From Chiloscyllium plagiosum (Eukaryota): a stretch of 36,706 bases of DNA. Positions 13,012 to 36,366 of this stretch are shown in pieces. The position numbers were made by a program, and so were the translations under genes. The notes beneath the pieces were generated by a model that was not told the origin of the DNA, did not search any database, and was given only the letters and a program-made list of their open reading frames with translations. Position 1 is the first letter of the stretch. Every line of letters starts with the position of its first letter. Location of the stretch: positions 10,580,685-10,617,390 of the forward strand of contig NC_057755.1 of assembly GCF_004010195.1 (NCBI RefSeq). Direction: 5' to 3'.

Positions 13012-13383
13012 AAGGCTTTTGATAAAACCATACAGTCAATGGATTGAAGATGGCATTTTGTAAATCGGAATGTCTTCACTGGAGTTAAGACATCTTTTAT
13101 GAGCGTGGCATCTCCAAATTCAAGGAGACAATACAATATTTCAAGGAGACCTTTTTGGTTTCTCTCACTTTCCAAGTTGTGCACATAACTGTTGAATTTT
13201 TCTTTCAGCCAGTCTGATACATTTGAAGCTGTTTCAGAGTGTAGTTCTTCACAGTAAAACGCAATCTGTTTCACTGAATTTGGTGATGAGAGGCCAATGA
13301 AACAACGGGAAAAAAATTTAAACCTGTCGTCCATGCAGTTGTGCCATTCAGTAAGTATTTTTTTCACTTGGTCAGCTGGTGTA
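13012..13383 (-). CDS. NLR large exon, distal part (HD2 / transition to LRR), cut by gaps at both ends
   Basis: Open frame 'ADQVKKILTEWHNCMDDRFKFFSRCFIGLSSP...VSDWLKEKF...GLLEILYCLLEFGDATLIKDVL...FTKCHLQSIDCMVLSKA'. It resembles NLR HD2 motifs (RFxxGL, LxxLYCLxE, LxxxDCxxLS). Confidence 0.88.
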
Positions 13384-13850
13384 NNNNNNNNNNNNNNNNN
13401 NNNNNNNNNNNNNNNNNNNNNNNNNNNNNNNNNNNNNNNNNNNNNNNNNNNNNNNNNNNNNNNNNNNNNNNNNNNNNNNNNNNNNNNNNNNNNNNNNNNN
13501 NNNNNNNNNNNNNNNNNNNNNNNNNNNNNNNNNNNNNNNNNNNNNNNNNNNNNNNNNNNNNNNNNNNNNNNNNNNNNNNNNNNNNNNNNNNNNNNNNNNN
13601 NNNNNNNNNNNNNNNNNNNNNNNNNNNNNNNNNNNNNNNNNNNNNNNNNNNNNNNNNNNNNNNNNNNNNNNNNNNNNNNNNNNNNNNNNNNNNNNNNNNN
13701 NNNNNNNNNNNNNNNNNNNNNNNNNNNNNNNNNNNNNNNNNNNNNNNNNNNNNNNNNNNNNNNNNNNNNNNNNNNNNNNNNNNNNNNNNNNNNNNNNNNN
13801 NNNNNNNNNNNNNNNNNNNNNNNNNNNNNNNNNNNNNNNNNNNNNNNNNT
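13384..13850. other. Assembly gap (467 N) inside the NACHT exon
   Basis: Run of N. Confidence 1.
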
Positions 13851-14243
13851 TAAATGGAAAGATCACATCAATCTCTCGGTACATTTCACCTGCTGCCCAG
13901 CCATGTATTATTTTCTGTATTGTGGTACTTTTCCCAAAACCTGACGGTCCAATGATGAGAGTGGTCCCAGTGCCTCCCGTCTGATTACAATGTTTTCTCA
14001 GTAACCTATCTAACGGTATTTCTTCCCGATGGTTCTGCTCAGCTTTCCTCCAGATTTCTCCTCCTGCCGTACTCCTGGTCTTCAGTGTATTGTCTGTTTG
14101 TTCCTGCTCACCCAGTGAAGGAATAATAGTTACTTTGGTATATCTTTCACTCAGTGGAAATCTCTGAATTCTTCTGTTTTCTCCTGTTATTGTTAGATTC
14201 TCGTTCTTTTTGCGAAGGTAATGTTTGTGCTGCCGTTTTATAT
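13851..14243 (-). CDS. NLR large exon, proximal part: FISNA-like region and NACHT P-loop
   Basis: Phase-1 acceptor 'tattttaatttag|AT' at 14244/14243. Translation 'DIKRQHKHYLRKK...FPLSERYTKVTII...IPLDRLL...TLIIGPSGFGKSTTIQKIIHGWAAGEMYREIDVIFPF'. Walker A at 13950-13927, followed by the NLR-typical KIxxxWAxG..FxF. Confidence 0.93.
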
Positions 14244-14979
14244 CTAAATTAAAATATTCAGGAAGTTTACCATCACCATTCATATTGGCAATATTTATCA
14301 GAATGATACTATGAACAAAATGCTAACGTTGCAATTGCTTTTGTGCCGATCTCTGTAATTGTGAAACTTGTGTTACATTGATCAACTGATTTAATCTAAT
14401 TATTTCACAGAGGCAGGTAGTGGAGTCGTGGTAATCTTACTGGGCTAGTGATCCAGAACCCCAGCCTGTAATTGCTGCCTTTATCCTTAAAACCTTCCTT
14501 AACAAGGTTGTAAGGTTGCCTCCAGGAAGGCTGAATGATTACACCCAGTTTCCCTTCAGTTCTCACTCTCACTACCTTCAGTATGCCTGGACGTACTTCA
14601 CCAGCTCGTGATGCCTTGTTCATGTTAACTATCAACACTCCATTCAACACTCCTTCCTCATCAATTTTAAAGTCTTCCCATGACAGTTTCCATCTCTATC
14701 ACAGCCTCCTTTGGAATATTCTGCAGAAGTTGTGATTAGTCGAGTTTTCTATTGGTTGCTCTTGCCTCCCATTTGTTAGTTCCTTTGTTTAATGACCTGG
14801 GCGGTGTATTTATTCACAAAGATTTAATACTGTGTAAAGCTCCCATCATATATTATCCACATTACGTTACCTACCATGAGTCGGCTTTCCAAAGAGAGAA
14901 TTAACTGTCTCTCGATATTTATTTAGTACAGTACAAAAGCAGACATGAGGAAGTTCCACCAGTATCTTTATGGATGAGA

Positions 14980-15780
14980 ATTTGTCATTGTATCGATCAC
15001 AAATCTCAGCTCGGGCTACTGAAGGAAGACAAGGTGATGCAGCTTCCAGTCAAATTCAACGTTGAATCCTTATTCTCAGCGCCTACAAGGACAAGTTCAA
15101 ACACCGTCCTGGAAGCCAAGTGGCTAATGTAGATGCTTTGGGCCCCCTCCCAATGGCAGATATTCACTCAATTGGTGTCTTCCTTTGAAGAATCTGTTGT
15201 AGCTCAATCTTTCTGGATGCACGTCCACTCACTGTGAACATTATCTGACTGTGGACACAAGAAGATCGTGTCCTGTGGGCAGAAACAGCTGAGGGGCAAG
15301 TGTGATGGTCCCAAGTTATGGTCACCACTAGATACTGGCCGATCTCAGCCAGGATTATCCAGGGGTATCCAAGATGGAGATGCTGGTGAGGAGCTATGTT
15401 GGCTAGGATTGGATGCCAACGTAGCTGCGTTGGAGGGATAGTGCCCCGAGTGCCAACAATGTCATGAATTGTCAATCACAGTATGGGAATGTCCGGGACA
15501 ACCCTGGATCATTGGCTATGCTTTTTCAGCAACACATTTTCAGCTCTATGCTGATCCTTTCATTGGCTCAATGTTCCTGGTCATTGCAGTCGCCCGTTCA
15601 AAAATGTTGGAGGTGCGTAAGATTCGTTCACTGAACTCAGGGGTAATGATTGACAAGGTGCAAGCATTGTTCGTGATACACGGATCCTCGGAAGTATGAG
15701 TCACTGACAAGGGAATGTCATTTACCACAGGAATTTTGAAAATTTCCAAAAGTCAAATGGCATTCAGCACATAAGGACAG
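14980..15780 (+). mobile_element. Degraded Ty3/Gypsy pol remnant (RNase H end and integrase)
   Basis: Fragments 'ILSAYKDKFKHRPGSQVANVDALGPLP', 'WECPGQPW' and 'PFIGSMFLVIAVARSKMLEV...LFVIHGSSEV*VTDKGMSFT', with stops and frameshifts. Confidence 0.72.
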
Positions 15781-15783
15781 CTT

Positions 15784-16505
15784 TGAGAGTGTGATGCTGG
15801 AAAAGCACAGCAGGTCAACCAGCATCTGAGGGGCAGGAAATTTATGTTTCGGGCATGAGCACTTCATCAGGAATGAGTCGGGTGGGTCAGGGGAGCTGAG
15901 AGATAACTGGGAGGGTGGTGGGGTTGGGGGGGAAGTTAGCTGAAAATAGAATAGGTAAGTGAAGGTGAGGGAGAAGGGGAGAGGTCGGAGAGGAGGGTGA
16001 AGGGAATAGATGGGAAAGGTGATGGACAGGTCAGCAGGCAGGCTTGCAATTCGGAAAATGTGGGGGGAGGGGAAATGAGGAAACTGTTGAAATCCACATT
16101 GACCCCATGTGGTCGCAGGGTCCCGAGGTGGAATATGAGGGGTTCCTCCTCCAGGCATTGGGTGGTAATGGTTTGGCAGTGGAGGAGACCAAGGATCTGC
16201 ATGTCCTTGATGGAGTGGGAGGGGGTGGTGAAGTGTTCAGCCACTGGGCAGTGGAGCTGGGTGGTGCAGGCATCCCAGAAATGTTCTCTGAAATGATCCA
16301 CAGGTAGGAATCCTGTCTCCCCGATGTAGAGGAGACCAAGTTGGATTCATCGAATACAGTAGATGGCATCGATGGAGGTACAAGTGAATTTCTGTCAGAT
16401 GTGAAAGGATCCTCTGGGGCCTTGGACGGAGGTGAGGGGAATGGTGTGGGTGCAGGTTTTGCACTTCCTGCATTGGCAGGGGAGGTTGCTTGGAGTGTGG
16501 TGTTG
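15784..16505 (-). mobile_element. Penelope-like element 3' part (GIY-YIG endonuclease and pseudo-LTR) inserted in the Gypsy remnant
   Basis: Minus ORF 'HFREHFWDACTTQLHCPVAEHFTTPSHSIKDMQILGLLHCQTITTQCLEEEPLIFHLGTLRPHGVNVDFNSF'. Degenerate CTGATGA...GAAAC motif at 15873-15841. Confidence 0.85.
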
Positions 16506-16591
16506 ACTGGTGGGCGTCCCTGAATATAGAGCAGAGAGTGTCTACGAACACCCTTGCACTGCTCAGGGATGGTGGACAACACAGGGAGTGG

Positions 16592-16788
16592 AATGTAATA
16601 TTTCCTCTTCAAACTCTATTTTGATTCAGTCTCTGCCGTCCCCTTCCCTTCCTTGGTCACCCAGCATTGCCCTTTGATGAGAAGGTCACTGCTTGTCACT
16701 GCCCACTTACTTCCTGGTGGTGGGTCATGAATAAAGATTGATGTGCTCATTGTTATTAACTGTGTCCTACAACTTCATACACACAACA
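16592..16788 (+). mobile_element. Possible 3' LTR of the Gypsy remnant
   Basis: Purine tract AGGGAGTGGAA directly before TGTAAT, an internal AATAAA, and an ending in ...CACAACA. No matching 5' LTR was found. Confidence 0.35.
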
Positions 16789-17034
16789 TGGGTGCTGGGA
16801 ATAAATAAATTTGACAATAGTGTGGAGATTTACAAAAAAGAATGAAGAAAATAAAAAATCTTATTTATAATCAGGCAATGTCATCAGCTGTGGACTGACT
16901 CCAAGCTGGCTAGCCACAGCCAGTGTACTATGGGGAAGAAATCAGTTGTCTTACATTTTTGTTTCTTTTGTTTTTGTGTTTCTGGGTATCTTTTCTTTTA
17001 TTGGGCTGTATTCGGCTGCGCAAGCAATCACCAT

Positions 17035-18500
17035 CACCACTGCTGCAGCCTGGTGTGACTCCAATGCTACAGCCTGGGTCTGACTCCACTCCTACAGCCT
17101 GTACCTGACACAACTGCTGCAACCTGGGTCTGAATCCACTGCTGCAGCCTAGGCCTGACTCCACTGGTGTAGCCTGGGCCTGACCCCGCAGCTGCAGTCT
17201 GGGCCTGACCCCGCAGCTGCAGCCTGGGCATGACACCACTGCTGCAACCTGGGCCTGACACCACTGCTGTGGTCTGGGCCTGACTCGACTGCTGCAGCCT
17301 GGGCATGACACCATTGCTGCAACCTGTGCCAACTCCATGCTGCAGCCTGGGATTGACACCACTGTTGCCAATGGACCTGACTACACTGCTGCAGCCTGGG
17401 CTTGATTCCACTGCTGCAGCCTGGGCTTAACTCTACTGCTACAGCCTGGGCCTGGCTCCACTGCTGCAGCCTGCTCCTGACTCCACTGCTGCAGCCTGCG
17501 ATTGACTCCACTGCTACTGTCGGGACTGACTCCACCGCTGCAGCCTGGGCCTGACCCCACTGCTACTGTCTGGGCCTGACCCCACTGCTGCAGACTGGAC
17601 GTGACTCCACTGCTGTAGCCTGGGGAAACCTCCACTGCTGCAGCCTGGACCTGGCTCCACTGCTGCACCTGGGCCTGAATCCATTGCTGCAGCCTGCGCC
17701 TGACACAACTGCTGCAGCCTGGACCTGACTCCACTGCTGCATCCTAGGCCTGACACAAGTGCTGCTGCCTGGACCTGACTACACTGCTGCTGCCTGGACC
17801 TGAGTCCACCGCTGCAGCATAGGCCTGACTCCTCTGCTGCTGCCTGGAGTAGACTTCACTGCTTCAGCCTGGTCCTGATCCCACTGCTGCAGTCTGGGCC
17901 TAACTCCACTACTGTAGCCTGCGCCTGACTCCACTGCTGCAGCCGGAGCCTGACCCCATTGCTGCAGCCTGGGCCTGACTCTAATGTGCAGCCTGCATCT
18001 GACTGCTGGCTGCAGCAATGGGGTCAGGCCCAGGCTGCAGCAGTGGTGTCAGGCCCAGGCTACAGTCGTGGAGTTAGGCCCAGACTGCAGCAGTGGGATC
18101 AGGACTCCACTGCTGCAGCCTGGGCCTGACTCCACTGCTGCTGCCTGAGCCTGATTCCACTGCTGCAGCCAGGGCCTGACTCCACTGCTTCAGCCTAGGC
18201 CTGAATCCACTGCTGCAGCCTGGGCCTGGCTCCACTGCTGCAGTCTGGAACTGACACCACTGCTGTCACCTGGGCTTAACTCTACTGCTACAGCCTGGGC
18301 CTGGCTCCACTGCTACAGCCTGGGCCTGACTCCACTGCTGCAGCCTGGACCTGACTCCACTGCTGCAGTCTGGAACGGACACCACTATTGTCACCTGGGC
18401 TTAACTCTACTGCTGCAGCCTGGGCCTGACTCCACTGCTGCAGCCTGTCCCTGACTCCACTGCTGCAGCCTGCGCCTGATTCCACTGCTACAGCCGGGAC
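17035..18500. repeat. GC-rich 25-bp minisatellite (consensus GCCTGGGCCTGACTCCACTGCTGCA) with a 97-bp inverted block at 18008-18104
   Basis: Tandem units read directly. The ORFs here are period artefacts. Confidence 0.95.
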
Positions 18501-18509
18501 CTAACTCTA

Positions 18510-18677
18510 TAATCTCTGGGACACCCGCACCAATCAACCAGACCGCCCTTTGTCCCAACATTTCAAAACCCCCTCCCACTCTGCCGAGGACATTGATCTC
18601 CTGGGCCTCCTTCACCGCCACTCCCTGACCAGCTGACACTGGAGGAAGAATGCCTCATCTTCCCCCTTGGAACATTG
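18510..18677 (+). mobile_element. Penelope-like GIY-YIG C-terminal fragment
   Basis: 'LWDTRTNQPDRPLSQHFKTPSHSAEDIDLLGLLHRHSLTS..LEEECLIFPLGTL', the same motif family as the minus ORF at 16301-16080. Confidence 0.75.
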
Positions 18678-18699
18678 ACTCACCAAACAGCATTCCACC

Positions 18700-18961
18700 T
18701 AAACCTCTACCATATCTGTGTGACCCCACATTTCCCATGTCTAATCATCATGGTCTGCACAACTTGGCACTATGGGAAATTTAGCATCATGAATCTACTC
18801 AACCTGCAGATCCGTGGACTGTAGGAGGAAACCAGATCTCCTGGCAGAAACCCACACAGACACGGGGAGAATGTACAAACTTCTTAGTGGCAGAAGGGCA
18901 AGGTTGGAATACAGGCCCCTTAATGCTTTGAGGTGGCAGTGCTAACCATAGAGGCACTGTG
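18700..18961 (-). mobile_element. tRNA-derived SINE (HE1/V-SINE-like)
   Basis: Minus strand has a head 'cacagtgcctctatggttagcactgccacctc' and a V-domain-like body 'gtttgtacattctccccgtgtctgtgtgggtttc...tttcctcctacagtcc'. Confidence 0.75.
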
Positions 18962-19054
18962 ATTTTCAGCATTTGAAGAGCTGCCAAAATGATTTCAGTT
19001 TCCAAGAATAATGCTTGTACTTCACTGTTTAAATGTTGAGGAAAGAATATAAAA

Positions 19055-19630
19055 ATTAGGATTGTTTTCCTGAGAATTTAGAAGGGTAAGATGTGCTCTA
19101 TTCGAAGGTTTAAATATTAATAGGAAAAGACCATGTAGATTAAGATATGATTTGGAGATGCCGGTGTTGGACTGGGCTGTACAAAGGTAAAAATCACACA
19201 GCACCAGGTTATAGTCTGACAGGTTTAATTTGAAGCACTAGCTTTCAGAGAGTTGACCCTTCACTGTGGCCTCAGGACAACCATCTGATGAAGGAACGGC
19301 GTTCTGAAAGCTAGTGTGCTTCCAGTTAAACCTGTCGGACTATAACCGGGTGTTGTGTGATTTTTAACTTATGTCAAGATAAACTGTTTCCACTTGTTGG
19401 GGATTCTAGAGTTAGGGGCATCATTGAGAAACAATGCCAGAGGTTTCGGGGGAGCTGTTAGGAAAAACAAAAGGTGCAGTTCATGGTGGACATGTAGTCA
19501 AATTTGAGTTGATTTCTTGTTTTTTTTTGGCAATCAACTCTATTATGAGACATGGGTCAAACTCTGGCATATGGCATTCGGCCACAGAATCGCAATGATC
19601 TCATTGAATGGAGCAACAGCTTCAATTGCG
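19055..19630 (+). mobile_element. Old CR1-type LINE 3' fragment, interrupted by a miniature Penelope-derived element
   Basis: 'LGLFS*EFRRVR..' and 'KLFPLVGDSRVRG' remnants on either side of the insertion. Confidence 0.5.
19148..19375. mobile_element. Miniature non-coding Penelope-derived fold-back element (two inverted pseudo-LTR ends)
   Basis: ~19186-19264 is approximately the reverse complement of ~19285-19370. The termini match 21587-21670 and 23027-23143. AAGATA flanks both sides. Confidence 0.75.
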
Positions 19631-19905
19631 TACACATGTTCCAAGGTTCCAACTGAGTCGGGGGCATCAGTCTGCAATGTGCCTGCCATGCTTGCATTTC
19701 TTCTTTTCCTCACAGGACAGTGTATTCAATTTGTGAAATACAATACACGGAAAAATGCTTATGGTATTATAAACATGTGAAATTGATAGCTGTTCTGAAC
19801 TGTACTTTTCCTGAATTCATTCTCTGCTTTGAAAGTGGAGGGTGAGCTCAAATGAATTGAATAGCAGACTATTTATGTCCCTATATATAAAAAAAATAAA
19901 TTTAT

Positions 19906-20011
19906 AAATTATTAAGTAGATCTATATATATGTATACACACATACATATATATGTACATATATATGTATATACACATATATACGTACGTATATAGATCTA
20001 CTTAATAATTT
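19906..20011. repeat. Perfect 23-bp inverted repeat enclosing an alternating purine-pyrimidine (TA/CA/TG) tract
   Basis: AAATTATTAAGTAGATCTATATA (19906-19928) and TATATAGATCTACTTAATAATTT (19989-20011). Confidence 0.9.
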
Positions 20012-21586
20012 GCTATAAATTTCTTTTTTCAATTCCTTAGTAAAGCATTTGTTAACAGAAAGTCCAGCTATTATTTCATCCTTTTGCCTTACGATTCGAG
20101 CACACTCCTCACATTTTATTTTTGAACAAACTTCTATCCTGATTGCTGTTCATGTTTAAAATTAAGTTCCATATTCAGTAAAAGAGTTTAATCTTTCTGG
20201 ATGTTGAGAAGGTATTTAGTAATTTATATTTTTTCACCTACCGTTCACAATATTTTCTATGTGTGTGTTCAAATCACCCAAAGATAATTCATTTCTTACT
20301 TTGTCCACGGTTTCTAGTGCCTTGATAGTTCTGCACACTTTGTATTTACTTATTATTTCATCATCCAGCATTAAAAAGTGAACATCGAACTAAATGAAGA
20401 TTATTCTATCTGCTTGCATGCATAACGTTCTGCTGCCTATAAAATATACATGTAGTCACACTGTCTAATACAGTAATCTCCTTCCACATTGCAGAGAATA
20501 GAACACAGGGGTGCAACAGTTTTTTTTTTACAATGCTTCCATGACCCTGCACTCCTTTTGTTCTTTGCTTCAGATATCAAAGTCATGCATTCATTCAGTT
20601 CTGAGTAAGGGACACTTAACCTGAAATGTTAAGTCTGATTTACCTCCACAGATGCTACCACACCTGCTGAGATTTTCCAGTAATTTCTGTTTTGTTGTTC
20701 ACATATTGTCCCTGACTTTGCGACCACCTGACCTATCCATCAAGTGAATATGTGATGTAATCTGTTGGCTCAGGTGCATTGTTGAACAGTTAGTAATGTC
20801 ACCATTCAATTCTTCCACCAGCCAAAGTTATCATTCCAAGACTTTCTTTCTCGATATATTGCCTTGCCTGAGGTGTCATGACCCTCTACCACCAGTCAAT
20901 GCTCTCAACTGAAAGAGCAGGACTCTAGTGAATTTATGTTTACAACGAGATTGACTGGTCCCTGTAAAACTTTCAAAATCTAGTCATTTATTGGTCATTC
21001 GAACACACTTCAGAACGTCCCTCTGTGTATCATCTCACACCATTCAGGCTCTGCTACATTTGTCAATGTTCCACTGAACTGGCAGAACCAGGTTCTGCAA
21101 ACAAAAACTTTCCCTCATTCACTATGAACTAACGTGACATTTCTGTCTTGTTTCCAATTTTCTGAATTATGTCCAGCACTTCCAACACCATGCAGATAAT
21201 TTAAAAATTTTGAGAATAAATACAGATTGCCATGAACCTGAAGGTAAGTAATATTTTAGTGAAATAAAATTTCATTACTCGCTATCCTTCTGTTATTGTC
21301 CCTGAGATTTTTTTTATATTTCCTTTTGCCTTGTATCCTCAGGACTTCACATTTCACCACCTGATGCTGGGTCAGAACATAACAAAGCTTTGGTCAAAGT
21401 TTTGTTCAATGCATGAAATGAAATAACCTCATATACTTTCTTACATTGCATCGGGGCGGGGGGAGAAATAGATCATTACACAGACCTGACCTTCCATTAA
21501 CATCTAGAGTCATAGAGACATACAGCACAGAAACAGACCCTTTGGCACTACTTGTTTCATAAATTCAAGCAGTCCCAATTCGCTGT

Positions 21587-23143
21587 TAAACATCACACAA
21601 CACCAGGTTATAGTCCAACAGGTTTAATTGGAAGCACGTAGCTTTCGAAGCGACACTCCTTCATCAGGTGATAGTAGAAGGCTCGATCGTAACACAGAAT
21701 TTATAGCAAAAATTTGCAGTCTGATGTAACTGGAATTATACATTCAAACATTGATAGTCTGTTAAGCCTTTCATCCGTTAGAATACAGTGATAGTTTCAC
21801 TTCTTTCATGTGTAAATCACATTTTTTTTAAAAAAAAGTTGCATTCTCGGATTAGCTGTTAACAATGGTGATAGCTAGACAATATGTTGACGGTATTACC
21901 TCCCTGTGTTCTCTCTCTATGACCTGATGTTTAGATTGATTCTAATCTAAAAAGTGAGATATCAGAGTTTTACATAAATTCATGCAGTTTTTGAGCTCAG
22001 AGTTCTACATGAATGTGCTGCCTGTCCCAAAGTCAACTTTGGAGGATGGTCACCCGAAGGTCCGAGGTCGAATGTTCTGGACCACTGAAGTGTTCCCCAA
22101 CTGGGAGGGAACCCTCCTGTCTGTTGATTGTTGTGCGTTGCCCATTCACAACAATCAACAGACATGTGGGTTCCCTCCCAGTTGGGGAACACTTCAGTGG
22201 TCCAGGACATTCAGCCTCGGACCTTCGGGTGACCATCCTCCAAGGTGGACTTCGGGACAGGCAGCAGAGGAAAATGGCCGAGCAGAGGCTGATAGCTAAG
22301 TTCGGTACCCATAGGGAGGGCCTCAACCGGGACCTTGGGTTCATGTCACATTACAGGTGATCACCATTGCACTACACACACACACACACACACAGATATT
22401 CCCCCACACACACTCTCACATCTACACGGACACAGGTATACACAGACGCGCACACAGACACCCACACAAACCCTTATAGACACACATACTCCCACACTCA
22501 AACATGCACCCCATCACAGGCTTAAGACACTCTGCACTCACTATATACACACACTTTCTCACACTCACAACCCTCACCCCAGACAGACACACACACACAG
22601 ACAAAGACCCACATACAAATATATATTTTGTGGGGTGAATTTGTACTTGCAGAGTTATATTGCAGTTTGCTCAAAAAGTGCGTACATTCATGTAGAACTT
22701 TGAGCTCACAAACTACATGAATTTATGTACAACTGTTATCTCACTTTTTAGATTAGAATCAATCTAAACATCAGGTCATAGACAGAGAACACGGGGGCTA
22801 ACACCTTCAACATATTGTCTAGCTATCGTCATTGTTTACAGCTAATCCAAGAATGCAACTTTAAAAAAAGGGGTTTGTGATTTACACATGAAAGAAGTGA
22901 AACTATCACTGTATATTAACAGATGAAAGGCTTAACAGACAATCAATGTTTGAATGTATAATTTCAGTTACATCAGACTGCAAATTTTTGCTATAAATTC
23001 GGTATTGCAATCAAGCCCTCCGCTATCACCTGATGAAGGAGTGTCGCTCCGAAAGCTAGTGCTTCCAATTGTACCTGTTGGACTATGACCGGGTGTGTAA
23101 TTTTTAACTTTGTACACCCCAGTCCAACACCGGCATCTCCAAA
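21587..23143 (+). mobile_element. Penelope-like element with ~430-bp inverted pseudo-LTRs, an internal palindrome, a GIY-YIG C-terminus and a 12-bp target-site duplication
   Basis: 21587-22017 is inverted relative to ~22683-23108. + strand 'TTINRHVGSLPVGEHFSGPGHSASDLRVTILQGGLRDRQQRKMAEQRLIAKFGTHREGLNRDLGFMSHYR*'. TSD CCAATTCGCTGT at 21575-21586 and 23144-23155. Confidence 0.88.
23027..23061 (+). ncRNA. Minimal type I hammerhead ribozyme motif in a Penelope pseudo-LTR
   Basis: cac-CTGATGA-a-ggag tgtcg ctcc-GAAA-GC-TA-gtg: intact core, stem II, 3-bp stem I (cac/gtg) and a palindromic AGCT at stem III. Confidence 0.7.
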
Positions 23144-23965: not shown

Positions 23966-24031
23966 CTTGCAGAAAATCTTTTACATCTGCGTTCGGATAA
24001 CTCCAAGGTGTCTGAGTGCTTACTTCGAAAA
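23966..24031 (-). CDS. Predicted 66-nt internal exon D of the NLR gene (VFEVSTQTPWSYPNADVKDFLQ)
   Basis: Acceptor 'atatgttaacag|', donor 'CAAG|gtaagt', phase 1-1, open. It joins the NACHT exon as ...DFLQ|DIKRQHK. Confidence 0.7.
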
Positions 24032-27039: not shown

Positions 27040-27105
27040 CTTGATGACTGTGTCCTTGGGCACGATACGAATTAAGTGGAGTTGTTTCATTTGCTGCTCT
27101 GAAAG
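27040..27105 (-). CDS. Predicted 66-nt internal exon C of the NLR gene (AFRAANETTPLNSYRAQGHSHQ)
   Basis: Acceptor 'atatgttaacag|', donor 'CAAG|gtaagt', phase 1-1, open. Confidence 0.68.
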
Positions 27106-27467
27106 CTGTTAACATATATGTTTGTAAAATTACTTTCTGTCTGAAGAATTGCACAAACCATAAAATTACAACTTCAAAGTTTAATCATATTATGACACTT
27201 ATTCACCAATAAAGAATAGAAATGATAAACTAAACAAAACTAATCAAAATTGAGTTGCCTTCATGTCTAACTTTGAAAATAATACAAACCTCACTGGATG
27301 CCGCATTGGTCACGAGAGAAAAATAGATATATAATCTATCAAATGAAAGATCAGAGGAGAGTTTCACGTGCACTCAAAATAGACACACTTTAAGCTGCCA
27401 CTTCATTATCTAAACACTGTTTAGGATTGTTAACATACTGAAAAAGATAATGTCACTCTTAACTCAC

Positions 27468-27656
27468 CATTTGTACCTTCAGTAGAATTACTTTGCGAGG
27501 ATTGTTGGGATTGCTCTTCACCAGAAGCTATGCTTTTTGACATTCGATAGAGATGACATAAACATGTCACCAATATTAAAATAAATATGAAAGCTATGAT
27601 GAGAGTAATAATTAAAGCAATCTTAACTGTATCCATTTCTACTGTAGCTTCATGTC
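27468..27656 (-). CDS. Predicted transmembrane exon B (189 nt): GHEATVEMDTVK-IALIITLIIAFIFILILVTCLC-HLYRMSKSIASGEEQSQQSSQSNSTEGTN
   Basis: Acceptor 'ttctttttttaaaatag|GA', donor 'AATG|gtgagt', phase 1-1. A ~22-aa hydrophobic helix is followed by Cys and basic residues. Confidence 0.78.
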
Positions 27657-27842
27657 CTATTTTAAAAAAAGAATAAACTCCAATCAGTTGTTATCATTGG
27701 AGGTTAATCTAATTTTTCATTTAATTCAGACTGATTCATCTATTCTCTACTTCATGAGCTCAGATCCCATGTTTGATTTTATGTCCCAGAGTCACTTTGC
27801 AGCTACTATGCACAATAATGCATGAAAAATATCCTTTAGATT

Positions 27843-28458
27843 TGTTATGGACCAGGCCAGACCCCACAAAATATTTTAAGAAGTTAGCCTAGACCCTAAC
27901 TTTTGTTTAATGTTAGATGGGCTGTGGGTATCCCAGGTGTGATGCAATATAAACCACTAGGCTTTAAAAACAAAACACTGTTTATAGAAATACTACAGTT
28001 AAAATACAAACAAAAAAGTGTGTAATTTAGAATAACTTATCTATTTGAAAACTTAACTGAATACATGATACAGTAAATTAACTAATTAACTGCTGCAGTA
28101 TATCAACATCCCATAAACACACCCCTTGGCCAAAAGATGAATTCAAACACAGATTCTTGAAGGCAGGAAGGAATAACATCCAGGGAAAGTTTTCAGAAAA
28201 ACTCAGTCAGGAATCATTTACTGAAACTTGCAACCCTTCTACTGCTCAGAAATCCTGTGACTGCTACAGCTAAAAAAACTAGAAAACTCTGAATTGAGGC
28301 ACAACTTTAATTGTTAATGTGTTTTTAAAAAGAAAAATCAGTATTGGTTCAGACCGTTACCCTGTCCAGCTCAGAATCTCTGCCTTTAGACTCCTCTTTT
28401 CAAAATATACCGAGGACAAAGGACAAAATAGCCTTTTCCAAGTGACAGCATCGTCACA
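27843..28458 (-). repeat. 3' LTR of the Gmr1-like element
   Basis: TGTTA...TCACA termini, similar to 35220-35817. Minus-strand polypurine tract AAAGGGGGAGG at 28469-28459. Confidence 0.85.
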
Positions 28459-29782
28459 CCTCCCCCTTTAAAAAAAAGCCAAGAACATTTTTTTGTCCTG
28501 CCATGCGTATAATTTTCAAATTAAATGGTCACTATAATCAGCTCCATCTAAACCATCTGGAAATTTATCATTATATATCTCAAAACATATTACAATCATT
28601 ACATACCATTGTCTCTGGCATATTACTGGCAATACAAATGTTGAAATGTTGCAACGCCAAAATCAAGATCTCCTTCTCAATTGTAGAATAATTTTGTTGA
28701 TAAATGCTCAATTTCCTGGTGAAATGTGTGATATGTCTTTCTATCTTCTCATTGTGTTGTTGTAAGAGTACAGCACCGATCCCACATCAATTGCATCGAT
28801 AACCACCTTGAATGGGTTTGCGTAATTAGGTGTGGCTAAAATTGGGGCAGTGGTCCATTGCTTTTTGACAGCCCTTCATCACTGAAATATCTACACTTCT
28901 TCAGTAAGTCAGTCAATGGAGCAACCACACTGCTGAAATTCAGTGCCAACTTGCAAGAAAACCCACTCCAGTAATCTTTGTTTTCACATTCCATGAGGCT
29001 ATCTGTCAATATACAACAATGTGGTCCAGTAAATTGATTTGGGCTTTGGCGAATTCATTCTTAGTGAAGTTTATCACCAAACCTGCCTCCCAAGGTCAAT
29101 CAAATAATTCCAATAATTGCTGTAGTCCTTCCACCTGTGACTCAATATCACCAGGCCTTTGATGTATATTAAACAATTGGGTATTCTGGAAATGATTTAA
29201 TACGTTAGTCTTTCAAATGTGGCTGGCACATTTTTCATTCCCTGTCATGACTATAAATTGGTATAGTCCATTTGGTGTTAGGAAAGCTGAAATTGTCTTC
29301 ACTCTTTTGAACGAATTTACCTGTCAGCGTCCTCTGAGTAAGTCCAACATAGTAATATAAGTTGATTGTCCCACCATTTCAATACAGTCTTCCAATGAAT
29401 CAGCTTTTGTAAATGTATTGACTTAGCAATAGTCTACAGATAATTGTTAGGTACCGTCTGGCTTTGGCACAATTACTATGGATAAGCTCTAGTCAATGTA
29501 ACTCGCTTTGATTAAATTATCTTTGTGCTCAACCTCTTTTTGAACATGTACCAACATTACAGGGTTAAGTCTATAAGGATGTTGTTTGATTGGAACAGCG
29601 TATGTTATATCTACATCATGCAGAGTTAATTTAGTACTTCCCAGTTTATTCCCACATATCGCTCCATACAATCGTAACAACAATTTCAGGTCATATTGAT
29701 TATCATTTGGAAGGAAGCACAACAATTTATCCCAATTTTTGAGAAAATCCTCATTGCCCAATCTAATTTGAGGAATGCCGAA

Positions 29783-30698
29783 TTGGCTGGCTGGAAGAAG
29801 ACAGAGGGTAGTAGTTGATGGTAAAGGTTCATCTTGGAGTGCAGTTACTTGCGGTGTTCCGCAAGGATCTGTTTTGGGACCATTGCTGTTTAGTCATTTC
29901 TATAAATGACCTGGAGGAGGGGCTAGAAGGTTGGGTAAGCAAGTTTGCGGATGATACGAAAGTCTGTGGAATTGTTGACAGTGAGGAAGGATGTGTCAGG
30001 TTACAGCGGGATATAGATAAGCTGCAGAGCTCGGCAGAAAGATGGCAAATGGAGTTCAATGTAGGTAAGTGTGAGGTGATTCACTTTGGTATGAGTAACA
30101 AAAAGATGGGGGACTGGGCTAATGGTCGGATACTTGGTAGTGTGGATGAGCAGAGGGATCTTGGTGTCCATGTACACAGATCTCTGAAAGTTGCCACGCA
30201 CGTAAATAGTGCGGTGAAGAAGGCATATGGCGTACTGGCTTTTATTGGTAGAGGAATTGAGTTCGGGAGTCCTGAGATCATGTTGCAGTTGCATAAGACT
30301 CTGGTGTGGCCGCATCTGGAGTATTGTCTGCAGTTTTGGTCGCCATACTATAGGAAGGATGTGGAGGCACTGGAACGGGTGCAGAGGAGGTTTACCAGAA
30401 TGTTGCCTGGTATGGGCACTCGGCTATTACGAGGGGGCATAGCTTTAAATTAAGGGGTGGTAGGTATAGGACAGATGTTAGGGGTAGATTCTTTACTCAG
30501 CGAGTCGTGAGTTCATGGAATGCCCTGCCAGTAGCAGTGGTGGACTCTCCCTCTTTATGTTCATTTAAACGGGCATTGGATAGGCATATGGAGGATAGTG
30601 GGCTAGTGAAGGTTAGGTGGGCTTGGATCGGTGCAACATCGAGGGCCAAAGGGCCTGTACTGCGCTGTATTCTTCTATATTCTATGTTCTACGTTCTA
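29783..30698 (+). mobile_element. 5'-truncated CR1/HER1-type LINE (RT domain and 3' UTR), same family as 5201-5862
   Basis: 'GVPQGSVLGPLL..INDLEEGLEGWVSKFADDTKVCG...KCEVIHFG...EQRDLGVHV', a (TTCTATG)-like tail, and an internal deletion near 30417. Confidence 0.93.
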
Positions 30699-31704
30699 AT
30701 TCTCTTATGTTGGTTCTTCACACTGTGTTGACACCAAAATCACATTCTGCTTTTACTTTCCTTCCCTATCAAAATATCTTTTTGCGCAAATTCACAGGAC
30801 ACACTCTGTGTGATTTATTTTCATCTGGAGTCCTGATCAAATAGTTTTCATGACTCAATCTCCTTTGGTTCGATAAGTACACCTATCACTAGAAGTAACG
30901 CTAACATGTTATCGCCAGTAGCAAAATTGCTAATTTTGGTTTTTGTATCTGCTTCCTGTTTTATTATGTACTGTGATTTTTTTTATTGCTAATTAGCCAA
31001 CTCCTCCCCTTTATAAGCGTTCAAAAAGAATTTGACACATAGTCCAAAAGGTGGCTCAAACTCTGATTTATTAATTTCTTCTTAATCAATTTCATGTTTA
31101 TTTCACCTCATGCCCAAAAAAGCTGAATTCAAAAGGACTGAATTTGATAGACTCATTTGACACATCCCTACTGGCAAATAGTGCAAACAGAATTTCTTTT
31201 TTCCACTCGTCTCTACAGCATTGACTCTAAGCAATTTGCATGGTCTTTAAAGTTTGATGCCACCTTACCTAATGGTCACTGCAATCCTAGAAGGACACGA
31301 TGGATTTGAATTGTTTTATTCCTAAGCTTAAAATTATTCCTTAGAATAATTTTAAAGCAAAAATTGAACCTTGATCTCATTATGTCTCTGTGAGTAGTCT
31401 GTATCTAGTGAAAATTTTGAGTCTGAAATCCGTTTAGCTGTGATAATGTGCAAAGGAATGTCGTTTAGAAAAGTGTTAGACACATCCATTATAGTTAACA
31501 AATACTAATCCGCACTTTTTGAGTTAGTTAGGAGTCCTATGCAAGCAGTTAAGACCCTTATAAGACCATAAGACCATAAGACATAGGAACAGAAATTAGG
31601 CCATTCAGCCCCTCGAGTCTGCTCCGCCATTCAATCATGGATAATAAGGTTCTCAACTCCAATCTCCCACATTCTCCCTGTAAGCATTGATCCCTCTATT
31701 AATC

Positions 31705-32273
31705 TTTATGACACGACAGTGAATCCTTCTGTTAATGAAATCAGACTTTGAGAAGAGTTCACCTCACCTCATAATCTGTTAAAATATGAGTGACAGAGAA
31801 CTACCGAATTTCATATATCTAAAGAAAATAATATGTTTTAACTCTAAAATTGAACATTAAACAATAACGATTCACAACTCTAAGCCCCCTTTCTCTTAAC
31901 TGCCTTAGTGCCTCCAACTCTACAACTATATGTTGTTCCAATAAGATGTTTATTAAAATTACATCAGCTTAGTTTCAAAACCACACAGCCGCTGTCATCA
32001 TCCGTGTCTGTCTTCTTCTGTCTGAAGATCTCCCTGAGCGACCTTTTCTTTCTGCGAATATGTTTCACAAGAAATGATACCTTTGACAGACAGTGTTTCC
32101 TCATTTCTTAGATGTATTTGATGGTAGCTGTTCTCCTTTAAAGGTATAGTACATGCCTTCAACTTCATTCCTGATGAAGGGCCTTTGCCCAAAACATTGA
32201 TTTTACTGCTCCTGGATGCTGCCTGAACTGCTATGCTTTTTCAGCACCAATCTAATCTTCAACTTCATAGCTA
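31705..32273. mobile_element. Unclassified insertion in the LINE 3' UTR, possibly a solo LTR
   Basis: The LINE breaks at ...TAATC (31704) and resumes at AATCAAGAACC (32274). Short inverted ends TATGA/TCATA. Confidence 0.45.
32169..32256 (+). mobile_element. 88-bp Penelope pseudo-LTR tip with a decayed hammerhead core and 12-bp TSD
   Basis: CTGATGAagggcctttgcccAAAAC. TSD CTTCAACTTCAT at 32157-32168 and 32257-32268. Confidence 0.75.
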
Positions 32274-32380
32274 AATCAAGAACCTATCTCTCACTTCATC
32301 AAAAATACTTAATGACCTGGCCCCCTTAGCCTTCTGTGACAGTGAATTCCATAGATTCACCACCCTGTGGCTAAAAAAGT

Positions 32381-32645
32381 GGGGGCGGCACGGTAGCTCA
32401 ATGGTTATCACTGCTGCCTCGGAGCGCCAGGGACCCGGTTCGATTCCAACCTCAGGTGACTGTGTGGAGATTGCACATTTTAAATGGCTGCTCCGATTTC
32501 CTCCTACAGTCCAAAGATGTGTAAGTTAGGTGAATTGGTTAGGGGTAAATATAGAGCAATAGGGTCTGGGTGAGTTACTCTTCCGAGGGTTGATGTGGAT
32601 TTGATGGGCTGAAGGGCCTGTTTCCACAATGTAGGAAATCTATGA
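32381..32645 (+). mobile_element. tRNA-derived HE1/V-type SINE
   Basis: A box GGTAGCTCAATGG, B box GGTTCGATTCC, V-like core, and a LINE-derived 3' end 'gggctgaagggcctgtttcc'. Confidence 0.85.
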
Positions 32646-35207
32646 AAGAAGTTTCTCCTTATCTCCAGTCTAAAAGGTCTTCCCTTTACTCTAAGACTGT
32701 GCCCTTGGGTCCTAGTCTCTCCTATCAATGGAAATATCTGTCCATGCCATTCAGTATTCTGTAACTTTCAATTCGATTCCTGTTCATCCTTCTCAACTCC
32801 AATGAGTATAGACCCAGCATCCTTATGTGTTAAGTTTTGCATTCCTGGGACCATTCTCGTAAACCTCCCCTGAACATGCTCCAGGGCCAGTGATTTAGCT
32901 TCAAATCCTGCGCACAATACTCCAAATTTAGTCTGATCACAGACTTACAGAGCCTCAGATGTACATCCCTGTTTTTATATTCAGGTCTTCTCAAAATAAA
33001 TGTCATTGTTGTATTTGCCTTTCTCAGTACTGACTCAACCTTCAGGTTAATGTTGAGAGAATCCTGATCTGGAGCTCCCAAGTCTCTTTGCACTTCAGAA
33101 TTCTGAACTTTCACCACATTTAGGAAGTAGCCCATGCCTCTATTCTTCCTATCAAATTGCATAACCTCACATTTTCCCACGTTATATTCAGCTGCTACTT
33201 CTTTACCCACTCTCTTAAAATGTCCAAATCCTTCTGAAACCTCCTTACCTGCTCAATACTGCCTGTCCCTCTATCTATATTTGTATCATCTGCAAACGTA
33301 GTCAGAATGCCCTCAGTTGCCTCATCTGGATTGTTAATGCATAAAGTGAAAAATTGTGGTCCCAACACTGAGCCTAGTGGAACACACATGTCATTGGCTG
33401 CCATTCCGAGAAAGACCCTTTTAGCCCCCACTCTATGCTTTCTGCGAGACAGCCAAGCTTCTGACACCATGGGCTTTAATATTACTCAGTACCTCCCTGT
33501 AAGGAACCTTGTCAAAGGCCTTCTTGAAGTCCTGGTGGATAACATCCATTAGTTCTCCTTGGTACAACCTGTTAATTACGTCCTCAAAGAAATCTAGCAG
33601 ATTTGTCAGGCATAGCCACCCCTTGATGAAACCATGCTGACTTTGCCTTATTTCACCATATACTTCCAAGTATTCAGAAACCTCATCCTTCACAATAGAC
33701 TCCAGGATCTGACTCACAACCGAAGTTTGGCTAATCTGACCGATACTTTCCATTTTTCTTCCCTTTTTAAACAGGGGTGTCTCATTCGTGTTTTTCCAGT
33801 AATCTGGAATCCTCCCTGAAACTAGCGATTTCTGAAAGTTTTCAATAACACCTCCACTTTCTGTTCAATGTTCCTCAAATGTGGGAATGGTGTTAAAGGT
33901 GCTTGTTTTATTTTTGCCTGAGGGTTGCCAATTGTCTGACATGTATGATATGTCTGGCAAAAGTCAAGTACATCCTTGTGCAGTCCACGCCATCAACAAT
34001 GTTTTTGTATTTTGGTTTGTGCTTTTCTTTCCCCAAATGACCTCCTTCTGGTAATTCATGTGCTACCCACAACGCTCCTTTCCTTCATCAACTGGTAATG
34101 CAACTTGATCAACACCTGCCCATTTCTCATCTGCTTGAGTATGCAATAGTCCTTCATTTATTTCATCAAGACATCCTATTTAAGATAGTAACACTTGAGA
34201 ATAGACTCAAAATTTGCTTCTATGTACGCTTTTTGACACAATGCTTCACTTTTTCATCTTTTTGTTATAATTCAGTTAGTTTCTCTGAACTAAAAATACC
34301 CACTTTGCCCTCCACCTAGCCTTATTTGTCTCAAATATTCGATCAATCATAGTCTCTGACAATGCTCTTCATACGCCCCACATACCTCCTCTGATAGTGA
34401 AGCAAATACCTCAGTAGCTCTATCCACCAACTTTGTTTCGATTAACAAAATCTATATAGTCGTTGGCCACTTCGTCTGTTTATCCACCTTCTGAAAAGAG
34501 ATTAAAAAGGCTTCTATATCATTCTCATCAAATTTAGGCAATACCTGGATATGTCTAAATAGGTCCCTCCTTTGGCAAGTATGGGTTTTGCCATCATCAC
34601 TATCCTCCTCACTACGTTTACATTCAGCCTTCACCTCCATCCATTTAAGTCAACTTCCCTCTCTAAATGTCAACTTCTGAAGTTCAGACTCTCCGTCTTT
34701 CTGTTTTTCTTCTCACTCTTTTTCCCTTTCTTCTACTGGGTCCTTCCTCTCCTTTTCTTTTTGTTCGACGAGGAGGATTCTTTATTTTTCTCCTTCCTCT
34801 TCCTTTAAGCATAAATCAGACTGTTTCAGTTCATTTTCTTGTTCAAGCTGACTCATCAGCAATTGAATTCAAGCCATTTCCAAAGATTCCAACATCAATT
34901 TCGGCAATTTTAAATGTTTATCTATTGCTGTAATTACCTCTCCTTTTCTCACAGACGAAGGCAACCCCAACTCCAGCTTGTCTGCCAACTCCAATAGCTT
35001 TGCTTGCTCACCTGTTGCAAAACCCCCAAAGTCACTTCTTCGACCCTCAGAAAACGTTTGGTGACTGAAAGATCCATTGTTATCACAAACACTATTTAAA
35101 CCAATCAAATTCAACACCCAATACAACGAACACTAACACCTACCACTCACCACCATGAATTGCAACAAACCTAAACACCAACTGGAATTGCAGAATGATA
35201 CTGAAAA

Positions 35208-35216
35208 GAGCCCCCA
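35208..35216 (-). promoter_or_regulatory. Primer-binding site remnant (tRNA-Pro type)
   Basis: Minus-strand TGGGGGCTC 3 nt after the 5' LTR. It matches the first 9 nt of the tRNA-Pro PBS. Confidence 0.7.
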
Positions 35217-35219
35217 GTC

Positions 35220-35817
35220 TGTTCTGAACCAGGCCAGATCCCCTCAAAATATAGGAAGCTAGCCTAGATGTTTTTTTTTCCCTTATTTGAAACGCAGATG
35301 TAAAGTGAGTGCTCCAGGTATGATGCAACTGATCAAGCCACTCGGCTTTAAGCAAAATAGAAGTTATTTAAACATTACAGTTAAAACACGAACAAAAGAA
35401 AATGGAATTTAGAATAACATAACTATCGGTAAAGTTAAACTCATACCTGATACAGTTATGATTACTAATTAACTATTCCAATATAGTCACACCCCTTGGC
35501 AAAAAAAGTAAATTAAAAACATATTCTTACACACAGGAGGGAATAATATCCAGAGAGAGTTTTCAGAGAAATTCAGTTAGGAATCATTTCCTGAAGCTTG
35601 CAACCCTTCTGGTGCTCAAAACTCTTGTGACTGCTACAGCTAAAAAAACTAGAAAACTCTGAACTGGGGGAACTGGCCATTACACTTTCATTGTTAAACT
35701 GTTTATAAAAAAAATTATTGATTCAAGCTGGTGCTCCTGGTATTTTAGCACCTCTGCCTTTACAACTTCACTTAAAACAAGGGCAAAATAATCTTTTTAA
35801 TGTGACAGTATTTCAGA
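35220..35817 (-). repeat. 5' LTR of the Gmr1-like element
   Basis: Colinear with 27843-28458 (e.g. shared 'gtgactgctacagctaaaaaaactagaaaactctgaa'). The outer end is approximate. Confidence 0.82.
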
Positions 35818-36191
35818 ACCGAATTTTGCAGGAAACAATATGTTATATTGAGAAAATCATGGCATTCCTAGAAAAAGCCATAAACGTGGAACAACACTCA
35901 TATACTTTCAACATGGAAAGTTTCTAATGAAATAAGAACACACACATGTTGAGAGGAGAAATGATTTTTCAATTAAGGCAAGATTATGCATCATTGAACA
36001 TGTTTGCAAGGAAATTTTTTAAAATGCCATATATTTTAATGAATTGGATCATGCAAATTTCAGAAGTGGGAAAATGTTTGTTTGAATATTAGTTTCTGCA
36101 AACAAAAGCATTCATGATGAAACGATGTGTTTGTCAAGTTGCGTCAAGATAGGAAATACTTTTTGATCACTGATTCTATCATTGCAATCAC

Positions 36192-36366
36192 CCTCATGTT
36201 TTTGAACATCTGCAGCATTGAATGGTTTCAGATATATCTTATCTTCGTTTTTATTAAGAGTGATTTTACCTTTGTCATCATTTGAAGTCACAAGATCTAT
36301 TTCTGTTCCTGTGCATATTCGAGCTGCAAACATGAGCCAGAGAAAAGCTCTAATTTCCCACTTCAT
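36192..36366 (-). CDS. Predicted first coding exon A: signal peptide and short ectodomain (MKWEIRAFLWLMFAARICTG-TEIDLVTS...VQKHE)
   Basis: Acceptor 'ataattttcag|' at 36378, 11 nt upstream of the ATG. Signal-peptide-like n/h/c regions. Candidate phase-1 donor GAGG|gtgatt at 36191 (moderate strength, so the 3' end is uncertain). Confidence 0.58.

Follow-up and report, generated by a model that had tools for sequence, protein, structure and literature searches.

A predicted membrane anchor upstream of the NACHT exon in an NLR gene of the bamboo shark Chiloscyllium plagiosum and in related shark and ray gene models

A stretch of 36,706 bp from the bamboo shark Chiloscyllium plagiosum (NC_057755.1; C46:10580685-10617390, referred to as the window) carries on its minus strand the exons of a putative NLR gene. 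We regard it as fairly probable that this copy encodes an NLR tethered to a membrane in type I orientation, its NACHT domain lying in the cytosol, and that it belongs to an undescribed elasmobranch clade. The window appears to contain the 5' two-thirds of the gene, with a predicted membrane anchor replacing the PYD or CARD at the N-terminus. The genome assembly searched is a draft of 3.56 Gb in 101,977 contigs, of which C46, C48, and C61406 are mentioned by label; L and P numbers designate genome loci and protein gene models, respectively. Exons are termed SP (signal peptide), TM (transmembrane helix), and R (22-aa repeat), and hydropathy is given as Kyte-Doolittle (KD) values.

The five exons were located at 36366-36192 (175 nt), 27656-27468 (189 nt), 27105-27040 (66 nt), 24031-23966 (66 nt), and from 14243 downward for the large NACHT exon. 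Every internal exon is preceded by AG and followed by GT, all junctions are in phase 1, and the joined reading frame contains no stop across 296 visible codons; the exon positions, splice sites, phases, and lack of stops had been read from the sequence in an earlier note on this DNA and were found again. The only N runs of the window are 12512-13011 (500 N) and 13384-13849 (466 N). No N occurs in 13850-36706; thus, the exon chain from SP to the NACHT acceptor sits on gap-free sequence, with all four junction-bearing introns continuous, which speaks against the scaffold misjoin between 14.3 and 24 kb named in the earlier note as a possible refutation. The NACHT exon begins at a phase-1 acceptor, as had been claimed, and the alignments of 6 out of 15 relatives start exactly there, at 14244; an exon with such a start needs an upstream phase-1 donor. 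Given the paralogues and the whale-shark homology described below, the small exons are judged to be more than chance open reading frames (ORFs). The coordinates are collected in Table 1.

Table 1. Parts of the putative NLR gene and assembly gaps in the window, in the order of the minus strand.
Feature	Position	Strand	Evidence
Conserved splice acceptor and 11-nt leader before the start codon	36367-36379, AG at 36379-36378	minus	in 6/6 SP-exon copies
SP exon, short form, 97 nt, phase 1	36270-36366	minus	donor AAAG/GTA kept in 6/6 copies
Optional exon-1 extension to donor GAGG/GTGATT, phase 1, +26 residues of stub	36192-36269	minus	open in the window only
TM exon, 189 nt, phase 1-1	27468-27656	minus	paralogues C61406, L007, L008; KD 3.33
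22-aa repeat exon R1, 66 nt, phase 1-1	27040-27105	minus	intact copy after the TM exon on C61406, 62% aa identity
22-aa repeat exon R2, 66 nt, phase 1-1	23966-24031	minus	duplicate of R1
5' part of the large NACHT exon: phase-1 acceptor, ~90-aa pre-NACHT segment, Walker A	13850-14243	minus	NACHT 27.6 bits
Assembly gap, 466 N, hides ~280 residues of NACHT/WH	13384-13849		comparison with P0003
HD2 part of the NACHT exon	13012-13383	minus	NLRC4_HD2 E=1.4e-7
Assembly gap, 500 N, must contain the last ~37 codons of the NACHT exon; only satellite beyond	12512-13011		

Six copies of the SP exon were found in the genome: the window copy, four on C46 at 10.41-10.66 Mb, and one on C48. The start ATG is retained in five of them. 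All six possess a second phase-1 donor (AAAG/GTAAAA, at 36270 in the window) after a conserved (D/E)-K-G. The 78 nt beyond it (36269-36192) are open in the window only and interrupted by stops or frameshifts in the other five copies, although unit 1 of the whale-shark model P0004 uses a similar long form. Because the donor is conserved throughout and the extension is open just once, exon 1 most likely comprises 36366-36270 (97 nt, phase 1), and the predicted luminal stub would measure about 24 aa; the stub of ~50 aa proposed in the earlier note is the less likely form. Exon 1 matched P0004 twice (58 aa at 43% identity, E=3e-9; 41 aa at 46% identity, E=5e-8). Residues 34-85 and 141-181 of this model are homologous to the SP exon, as are the units of P0031. 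By rules of thumb, the encoded sequence has signal-peptide features, namely a Met-Lys start, a 9-residue hydrophobic core (KD 2.18), and C-x-G (small residues) at -3/-1. The following stub is acidic, with seven acidic and two basic among 24 residues, and ends in KG.

The conserved acceptor 11 nt before the ATG suggests a non-coding 5' exon further upstream and leaves room for an N-terminal extension of the predicted signal peptide. In an unspliced reading, an in-frame TAA lies 21 nt upstream of the ATG. Isoforms of Mobula have alternative 5' exons spliced in just before the SP Met, which mirrors the situation in the window. A non-coding leader exon is therefore probable from the conserved acceptor; a counterpart of the whale-shark leader was looked for in the next 10 kb upstream of the window, a stretch consisting of 44% N, and was not found.

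In the product of the TM exon, a G-HEAT motif precedes a 22-residue helix, after which come a juxtamembrane C-x-C, basic residues, and a tail rich in Ser and Gln. The best 19-residue KD window of the helix reached 3.33 and the mean over the 22 residues 3.27; H, R, and K come next, as the earlier note had quoted. Furthermore, the charges obey a positive-inside pattern by this hydropathy-based criterion, with seven acidic and two basic residues before the helix and H, R, and K after it. This distribution predicts an N-out/C-in orientation even without the SP exon, and the NACHT domain would be cytosolic in either case. The topology argued for in the earlier note, with a luminal stub and a cytoplasmic NACHT, thus holds at the level of hydropathy and charge: a signal-peptide-like start, an acidic stub, a helix, and a basic stop-transfer sequence would place the NACHT in the cytosol. 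Intact TM-exon copies exist at four loci including the window, all sharing one acceptor and encoding an (H/Q)(E/D)AT motif, then a hydrophobic run, and after it basic residues. The paralogue on C61406 is 69% identical to the window copy on the amino acid level, and a remnant is present on C48. A comparison of the TM exon with a set of 5.8 billion proteins (longer proteins) gave no match among 39 candidates, the word index being coarse for a short low-complexity query.

Exons 2 and 3 (window 27040-27656) were compared with the C61406 paralogue (L002). The exons differ at 37 of 255 sites (14.5%) and contain no indels; in the introns, 114 out of 1516 aligned sites are changed (7.5%) and indels are numerous (Fisher p=6e-4). 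The exons have thus diverged about twice as fast as their flanking introns while frame and splice sites were kept. We determined a dN of 0.157 and a dS of 0.119 against an intron rate of 0.075 (dN vs intron p=5e-4). Coding constraint is derived from the dN relative to the intron rate together with the lack of exon indels, and not from dN/dS alone. An unbroken frame that changes faster than its introns would be expected of an immune gene under diversifying selection, a point that dN/dS does not decide.

The two 22-aa repeat exons R1 and R2 are duplicates of each other, and their upstream intron flanks are 92% identical. Only three out of six R copies in the genome are intact, two of them in the window. 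Relatives lie downstream of the TM exon at C61406, L007, L039, and L041. The same unit forms the N-terminal repeats of the Chiloscyllium punctatum models P0016 and P0189 and of P0004: R2 matched the last N-terminal repeat of P0016 with 61% identity over 23 aa (E=0.004) and matched the repeats of P0004 as well. In both P0016 and P0004, the repeats directly adjoin the pre-NACHT segment.

The link between the TM exon and the NACHT exon drawn in the earlier note is supported by a conserved exon order at several loci and by NCBI models joining the two. Within the 3.56 Gb, SP and TM exons were found only in NLR clusters or on a small unplaced contig; of the six SP matches, those on C46 lie in the NLR cluster at 10.41-10.66 Mb, and the one on C48 lies 10 kb ahead of a NACHT pseudogene. 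SP, TM, R, and NACHT follow one another in this order on a single strand at four places: in the window, at C46:10.662-10.668 Mb, on C48 (a decayed copy lacking the ATG and containing stops), and at C46:10.424-10.470 Mb, there spread over ~45 kb. The NCBI model P0001, a C. plagiosum paralogue 50 kb away with the TM locus L008 as its first exon, splices the TM exon directly to the NACHT exon; at its locus (C46:10.662-10.668 Mb), all 34 exon residues are identical and the NACHT exon follows. This locus is decaying: its SP exon is frameshifted, its R exon is decayed, and its NACHT frame breaks off at 363 aa. P0004 (Rhincodon) unites SP-TM units, two R repeats, and NACHT-LRR in one model. In P0189 (C. 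punctatum XP_072420838.1), a TM exon 76% identical to L007 is joined to R repeats and to a NACHT region 86% identical to L029. Other NCBI models joining a homologous TM to NACHT are P0009 of Stegostoma, P0007 of Hemiscyllium, P0013 of Scyliorhinus, and several from rays. The TM segment is retained in all five cluster members of Stegostoma, in six of eight of Scyliorhinus torazame, and in all nine of Mobula hypostoma. A different upstream exon for NACHT was also looked for. None of 17 matches to N-terminal exons of the type found in P0003 lies near the window, such exons being encoded only at C46:10.07 and 10.21 Mb, and no CARD-like exon is present in the window.

Two arrangements elsewhere on C46 are of note. 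The region C46:10424117-10470800 (plus strand; L007, L044, L029) represents a second SP-TM-repeat-NACHT gene of ~45 kb from a divergent NLR subfamily, orthologous to P0189; its NACHT piece contains one TAG within the first 130 codons. At C46:10.07 Mb and 10.205-10.223 Mb (minus strand), tandem exon arrays encode the long TM-less N-terminus of P0003, which is repeated at the end of P0030. This N-terminus is a second type within the same NLR clade.

In the visible 5' part of the NACHT exon, which is 88-90% identical to Chiloscyllium models, the NACHT profile (PF05729) scored 27.6 bits against a cut-off of 26.7, based on 38 visible residues that include the Walker A motif G-x-G-K-S; homologues score 81-116 bits. 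The HD2 piece gave an NLRC4_HD2 match (E=1.4e-7, 32.5 bits) just below the cut-off of 33.1, with only profile positions 37-120 visible, and it is 89% identical to residues 598-720 of P0003, a model that passes this cut-off. The 466-N run stands for ~280 residues of P0003, the closest relative. The gap size is thus arbitrary, and the differing frames of the two visible NACHT pieces carry no meaning. Likewise, position 13012, taken in the earlier note as the end of the feature, is merely the edge of the gap 12512-13011.

The earlier note had named a FISNA-NACHT module and proposed a search for the FISNA, NACHT, and NLRC4_HD2 profiles. NACHT stands above and NLRC4_HD2 narrowly below its cut-off; FISNA (PF14484) gave no match at E<=1 in the 130-aa window piece and none in the elasmobranch-clade models scanned. 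Elsewhere, FISNA was found below threshold in the sister-clade models P0034, P0058, and P0065 and above it only in P0026 of Perca. The pre-NACHT segment lies where FISNA would be expected and may represent this domain in a diverged state. Pfam PYD and CARD were not detected in the window gene (exons 1 and 2 in the case of PYD), and PYD was not detected in 19 full-length relatives scanned either.

To follow this architecture beyond Chiloscyllium, 1.84 billion representative proteins were scanned with P0004, which gave 2031 matches at E<=0.001; the best 150 of the 2031 plus earlier matches were analyzed. Among 148 proteins with a Walker A motif, 19 contain a 19-residue segment of KD>=1.8 more than 60 residues upstream of it, two of which look like false positives. 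Such segments had a density of 0.81 per 1000 aa in the part before Walker A and 0.27 in the part after it. In RefSeq models of eight shark and six ray species, hence in at least 14 elasmobranch species among the names looked up, a related NACHT is preceded by a strongly hydrophobic helix with basic residues after it. The sharks are Chiloscyllium plagiosum, C. punctatum, Rhincodon, Stegostoma, Hemiscyllium, Scyliorhinus torazame, Mustelus asterias, and Heterodontus; the rays are Pristis, two Mobula species, Rhinoraja, Narcine, and Hypanus.

A FastTree phylogeny of 59 NACHT regions revealed one elasmobranch clade of 30 rows (support 100), in which the window row is nested with P0003, L010, and P0004. 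A TM segment occurs in 15 of these 30 rows as compared to 2 of 29 outside (Fisher p=4e-4), and all shark and ray carriers except Narcine P0106 fall inside. Many non-carriers begin at or just before NACHT and are probably incomplete; P0016 counts here as a non-carrier, yet P0189, a more complete member of its cluster, possesses the helix. Membrane anchors thus appear to be common within the elasmobranch-specific clade that contains the window gene.

In models from S. torazame, Mustelus, and rays, a CARD-like domain lies between TM and NACHT (P0044, 23.7 bits with a cut-off of 23.9; P0013, 16.7 bits). The arrangement of anchor plus CARD-like domain is probably the older form, and the CARD-bearing relatives suggest an older signalling output. 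All nine isoforms of Mobula hypostoma keep SP, TM, CARD-like domain, and NACHT and differ by alternative 5' exons. NCBI generally lists multiple isoforms only with transcript-alignment support; if this applies here, genes of the Mobula hypostoma type would have RNA support. The S. torazame isoform X5 (P0182) starts after the TM helix and contains CARD-like domain, NACHT, and LRR only; according to this model, a soluble form may exist beside the anchored one. P0010, P0037, and P0046, which are TM-less members or neighbours of the clade, start with M-G-x-x-x-S/A/G, with basic residues next in two of them. Such a start resembles an N-myristoylation signal and might represent another route to the membrane.

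A different composition was observed in P0106 (Narcine bancroftii XP_069757801.1) and P0139 (Polypterus senegalus XP_039601942.1), where Ig V-set and Ig C-type domains precede a TM helix and NACHT(-LRR). These butyrophilin-like ectodomains on an NLR lie outside the elasmobranch TM clade and are either true fusions or merged neighbours.

A number of points weigh against a membrane-anchored NLR encoded by the window gene. The signal peptide and the TM helix were judged by hydropathy and rules of thumb only. The TM exon alone gave no significant BLASTP match to P0004 (E=6.4; E=0.039 without composition correction); its homology to this model is concluded from its position, a motif common to the exon start, and the series of paralogues. 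The dN/dS of ~1.3 for exons 2 and 3, derived from few sites, would alone be compatible with neutral drift. A search of sequencing runs with window 27040-27656 gave no match recorded as RNA; four runs of unrecorded kind contain 0.28-0.41 of its words, a range that fits exon-only content (exons make up 41% of the stretch) and ~0.5x whole-genome runs (1.9-2.4 Gb) equally and is evidence for neither. Additionally, two gaps interrupt the NACHT exon, so this copy may be incomplete, and no LRR exon was detected, whether within the window, over the next 10 kb downstream, or along ~280 kb of the minus strand downstream. Three paralogues have an LRR exon within 1.7-5 kb of the NACHT exon, at ~1.7 kb in those at C46:10.684 and 10.701 Mb. 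The expected site of the LRR exons is occupied in the window by a 12.5-kb degenerate satellite (1-12511; units of ~35-43 bp, pyrimidine-rich on the plus strand, GC skew near -0.7) that directly adjoins the second gap. The clade architecture might therefore be real and the window copy truncated or decaying, its 3' end lost to or displaced by the satellite, so that no functional TM-NLR is made here. Visible decay of the neighbours, at the P0001 locus and on C48, would be in line with this explanation. We nevertheless consider it unlikely: no stop interrupts any of the five exon pieces that are visible, splice sites and Walker A are intact, the window harbors the best-preserved SP-TM-R-R set in the genome, and the downstream 10 kb consist of 60% N, so the missing LRR exon may be an assembly defect.

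Other points concern the joining of the exons. It is predicted from exon phases, co-duplication, and orthologous gene models; these models are automatic predictions, and symmetric phase-1 exons chain easily. In P0003, whose NACHT is the closest relative at 89% identity, the N-terminus is long and has no TM. P0031 (Stegostoma tigrinum XP_059498758.1) chains three SP-TM cassettes without a NACHT, and P0004 contains two SP-TM units in tandem (residues 34-232); with such tandem cassettes, P0031 and P0004 cannot both be simple type I proteins. The cassettes are chained via the conserved acceptor before each SP Met and may be alternative 5' cassettes, stand-alone genes, or artefacts. Accordingly, the SP and TM exons might, alone or together with the repeats, constitute a separate small type I gene or unused cassettes, merged by annotation with a neighbouring NACHT gene that uses an unseen first exon. 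Cassettes at C46:10.411 and 10.424 Mb lack a NACHT within 10 kb, and read-through of the exon-2 donor reaches a stop 11 codons on, which would allow for a short product. Yet the 10.424 Mb cassette has its counterpart in P0189 joined to R repeats and NACHT, and the orthologous NACHT lies 45 kb downstream on the same strand. The restriction of SP and TM exons to NLR clusters and one small contig, the R exons adjoining the pre-NACHT segment in P0016 and P0004, and the lack of an alternative N-terminal exon type in the 22 kb upstream likewise argue against separate genes, and merged neighbours would poorly explain the CARD-like domain between TM and NACHT in catshark, smooth-hound, and rays. We thus rate a separate gene as clearly improbable. 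It is very improbable that the assembly or scaffolding placed unrelated exons beside the NACHT exon. The assembly is a draft of 101,977 contigs with N runs inside the NACHT exon and N-rich flanks on both sides; however, the four junction introns are continuous, and the exon order is repeated at other loci and in the assemblies of other species.

The exons with their phases and homologies, the co-duplicated exon order, and the hydropathy are observed directly. For the favored membrane-anchored NLR, splicing at the locus, signal-peptide cleavage, topology, the membrane concerned, and function are predicted as follows. A non-coding leader exon would be followed by the SP exon, the TM exon, the two 22-aa repeat exons, and the large exon for pre-NACHT, NACHT, WH, and HD2. 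Translation would yield a single-pass membrane protein of type I with its signal peptide cut after C-x-G. The acidic stub of ~24 aa (50 aa with the distal donor) would face the lumen or the outside, the 22-residue helix would span the bilayer, and the C-x-C pair and the basic residues would lie at the cytosolic face. A Ser/Gln/Thr-rich linker of ~73 aa would lead from the helix to the pre-NACHT segment and keep NACHT(-LRR) on the cytosolic side of the plasma membrane or of an endosomal or secretory-pathway membrane. Since the stub is too small for a ligand-binding domain, the anchor is read as a positioning device and not as a ligand binder: the sensor would be pre-placed and would oligomerize in two dimensions. 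The window copy has no death-fold domain, and its output would therefore need a partner.

The introns contain further sequence elements. A GC-rich 25-bp minisatellite with 59 copies (17037-18507) is located in the 9.7-kb intron before the NACHT exon. Retroelement debris is present as an ORF at 33433-33864 (minus strand) and as other ORFs at 29.5-30.7 kb and 32.8-33.3 kb; one retroelement ORF gave a sub-threshold RVT_1 match (E=1.4e-5, 25.4 bits, cut-off 29.6). Pfam searches with the ORFs 29815-30453, 32830-33252, and 15936-16346 gave no match.

Vertebrate NLRs are taught as cytosolic sensors. NLRX1 has a mitochondrial leader, and mammalian NOD1, NOD2, and NLRP3 are recruited to membranes by lipidation or lipid binding, a step that studies of these proteins indicate to be central to their activation. 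The functional analogy to the window gene lies in an NLR acting at the cytosolic face of a membrane. Attachment of the mammalian proteins is post-translational and reversible, whereas the anchor of the window gene would be a built-in helix that is inserted co-translationally. By analogy to lipidation, the juxtamembrane C-x-C could be acylated.

Closest to the window gene are elasmobranch RefSeq models named NLRP12-like, NLRP3-like, or NLRP6-like (XP_048476758.1 of Rhincodon, XP_059498867.1 of Stegostoma, XP_060709395.1 of Hemiscyllium, XP_072354258.1 of Scyliorhinus torazame, and XP_062892860.1 of Mobula hypostoma). They are predictions and not characterized proteins. They have a NACHT-WH-HD2-short LRR core, of which the window gene shows part of the NACHT and a stretch matching HD2 narrowly below the cut-off, and, like the window gene, a predicted TM helix with basic residues behind it upstream of NACHT; the orectolobiform models are 52-90% identical to it over the first 130 aa. 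A homologous SP exon, a TM exon with a HEAT-type motif, and 22-aa repeats are shared by Rhincodon, Stegostoma, and Chiloscyllium. The catshark, smooth-hound, and ray forms differ by a longer ectodomain, which is Cys-rich in two shark models, and by the CARD-like domain. Although the names of the RefSeq models imply a PYD, none was detected.

The family of teleost NLR-C/NLR-B30.2 genes encodes Fisna, NACHT, WH, and HD on a single large exon and N-terminal peptides on single duplicated exons (Howe et al. 2016; PMC4852459). This plan of one pre-NACHT/NACHT/WH/helical exon plus short repeat exons is shared by the window gene, in which B30.2 was not seen and Pfam FISNA was undetected. In the accessible portion of that article, "signal peptide" does not occur and "transmembrane" occurs once, with respect to TLRs. 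Anthozoan NLRs with transmembrane domains (TMDs) carry three to five N-terminal TM segments, form one clade, and have no signal peptide according to the accessible text (PMC5094078), which describes other metazoan NLRs as cytosolic. They resemble the window gene and its relatives in carrying the anchor ahead of NACHT and in grouping together. Two sea cucumber proteins, AjNLRC4 (Ig-TM-NACHT) and AjNLR-new, also combine NACHT with a TM segment; AjNLRC4 is described as localized at the cell membrane with an extracellular domain and an intracellular NACHT (PMC13133943). These proteins have Ig ectodomains and no homologous SP or TM exons, unlike the window gene with its domain-less stub, so the sea cucumber and shark anchors are presumably of independent origin. 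The whale-shark genome paper reports an expanded NLRP-related family and, in the portion available, mentions neither TM nor signal peptide (PMC8455134). In the literature covered, from which most subscription journals are missing so that this is no proof, no transmembrane NLR was described in a vertebrate, and TM-bearing NLRs were found only for anthozoans and a sea cucumber (PMC5094078, PMC13133943; partial texts). The architecture, which the earlier note did not know from vertebrates, is thus unfamiliar in that we found no paper on it; it is not unique to the window, considering the models from at least 14 elasmobranch species, in which it is latent and unremarked in public databases.

As a vertebrate, single-pass, signal-peptide-bearing NLR, the window case is partly supported: comparative support is strong, and the copy is not demonstrably whole. 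For the family as a whole, we see about an even chance that sharks and rays possess an undescribed clade of NLRs genetically hard-wired to a membrane. Its ancestral form would be SP-short ectodomain-TM-CARD-NACHT-LRR, from which the window form would be derived by shrinkage of the ectodomain to a stub and replacement of the CARD by 22-aa repeats, and its members would be the first transmembrane NLRs of vertebrates. If this holds true, soluble isoforms arising through alternative 5' ends, such as S. torazame isoform X5, and the myristoylation-like starts of TM-less members would represent other routes to the same membrane. Annotation would be affected as well, since genes are labelled NLRP3-, NLRP6-, or NLRP12-like although a pyrin domain was not detected in 19 full-length relatives scanned, and the anchor is absent from their names. 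A tethered sensor poses the question to what its CARD, or a linker lacking a CARD, would signal. Finally, a tether encoded by SP and TM exons would be a natural experiment on which membrane matters to an NLR and on whether confinement to two dimensions can replace recruitment.

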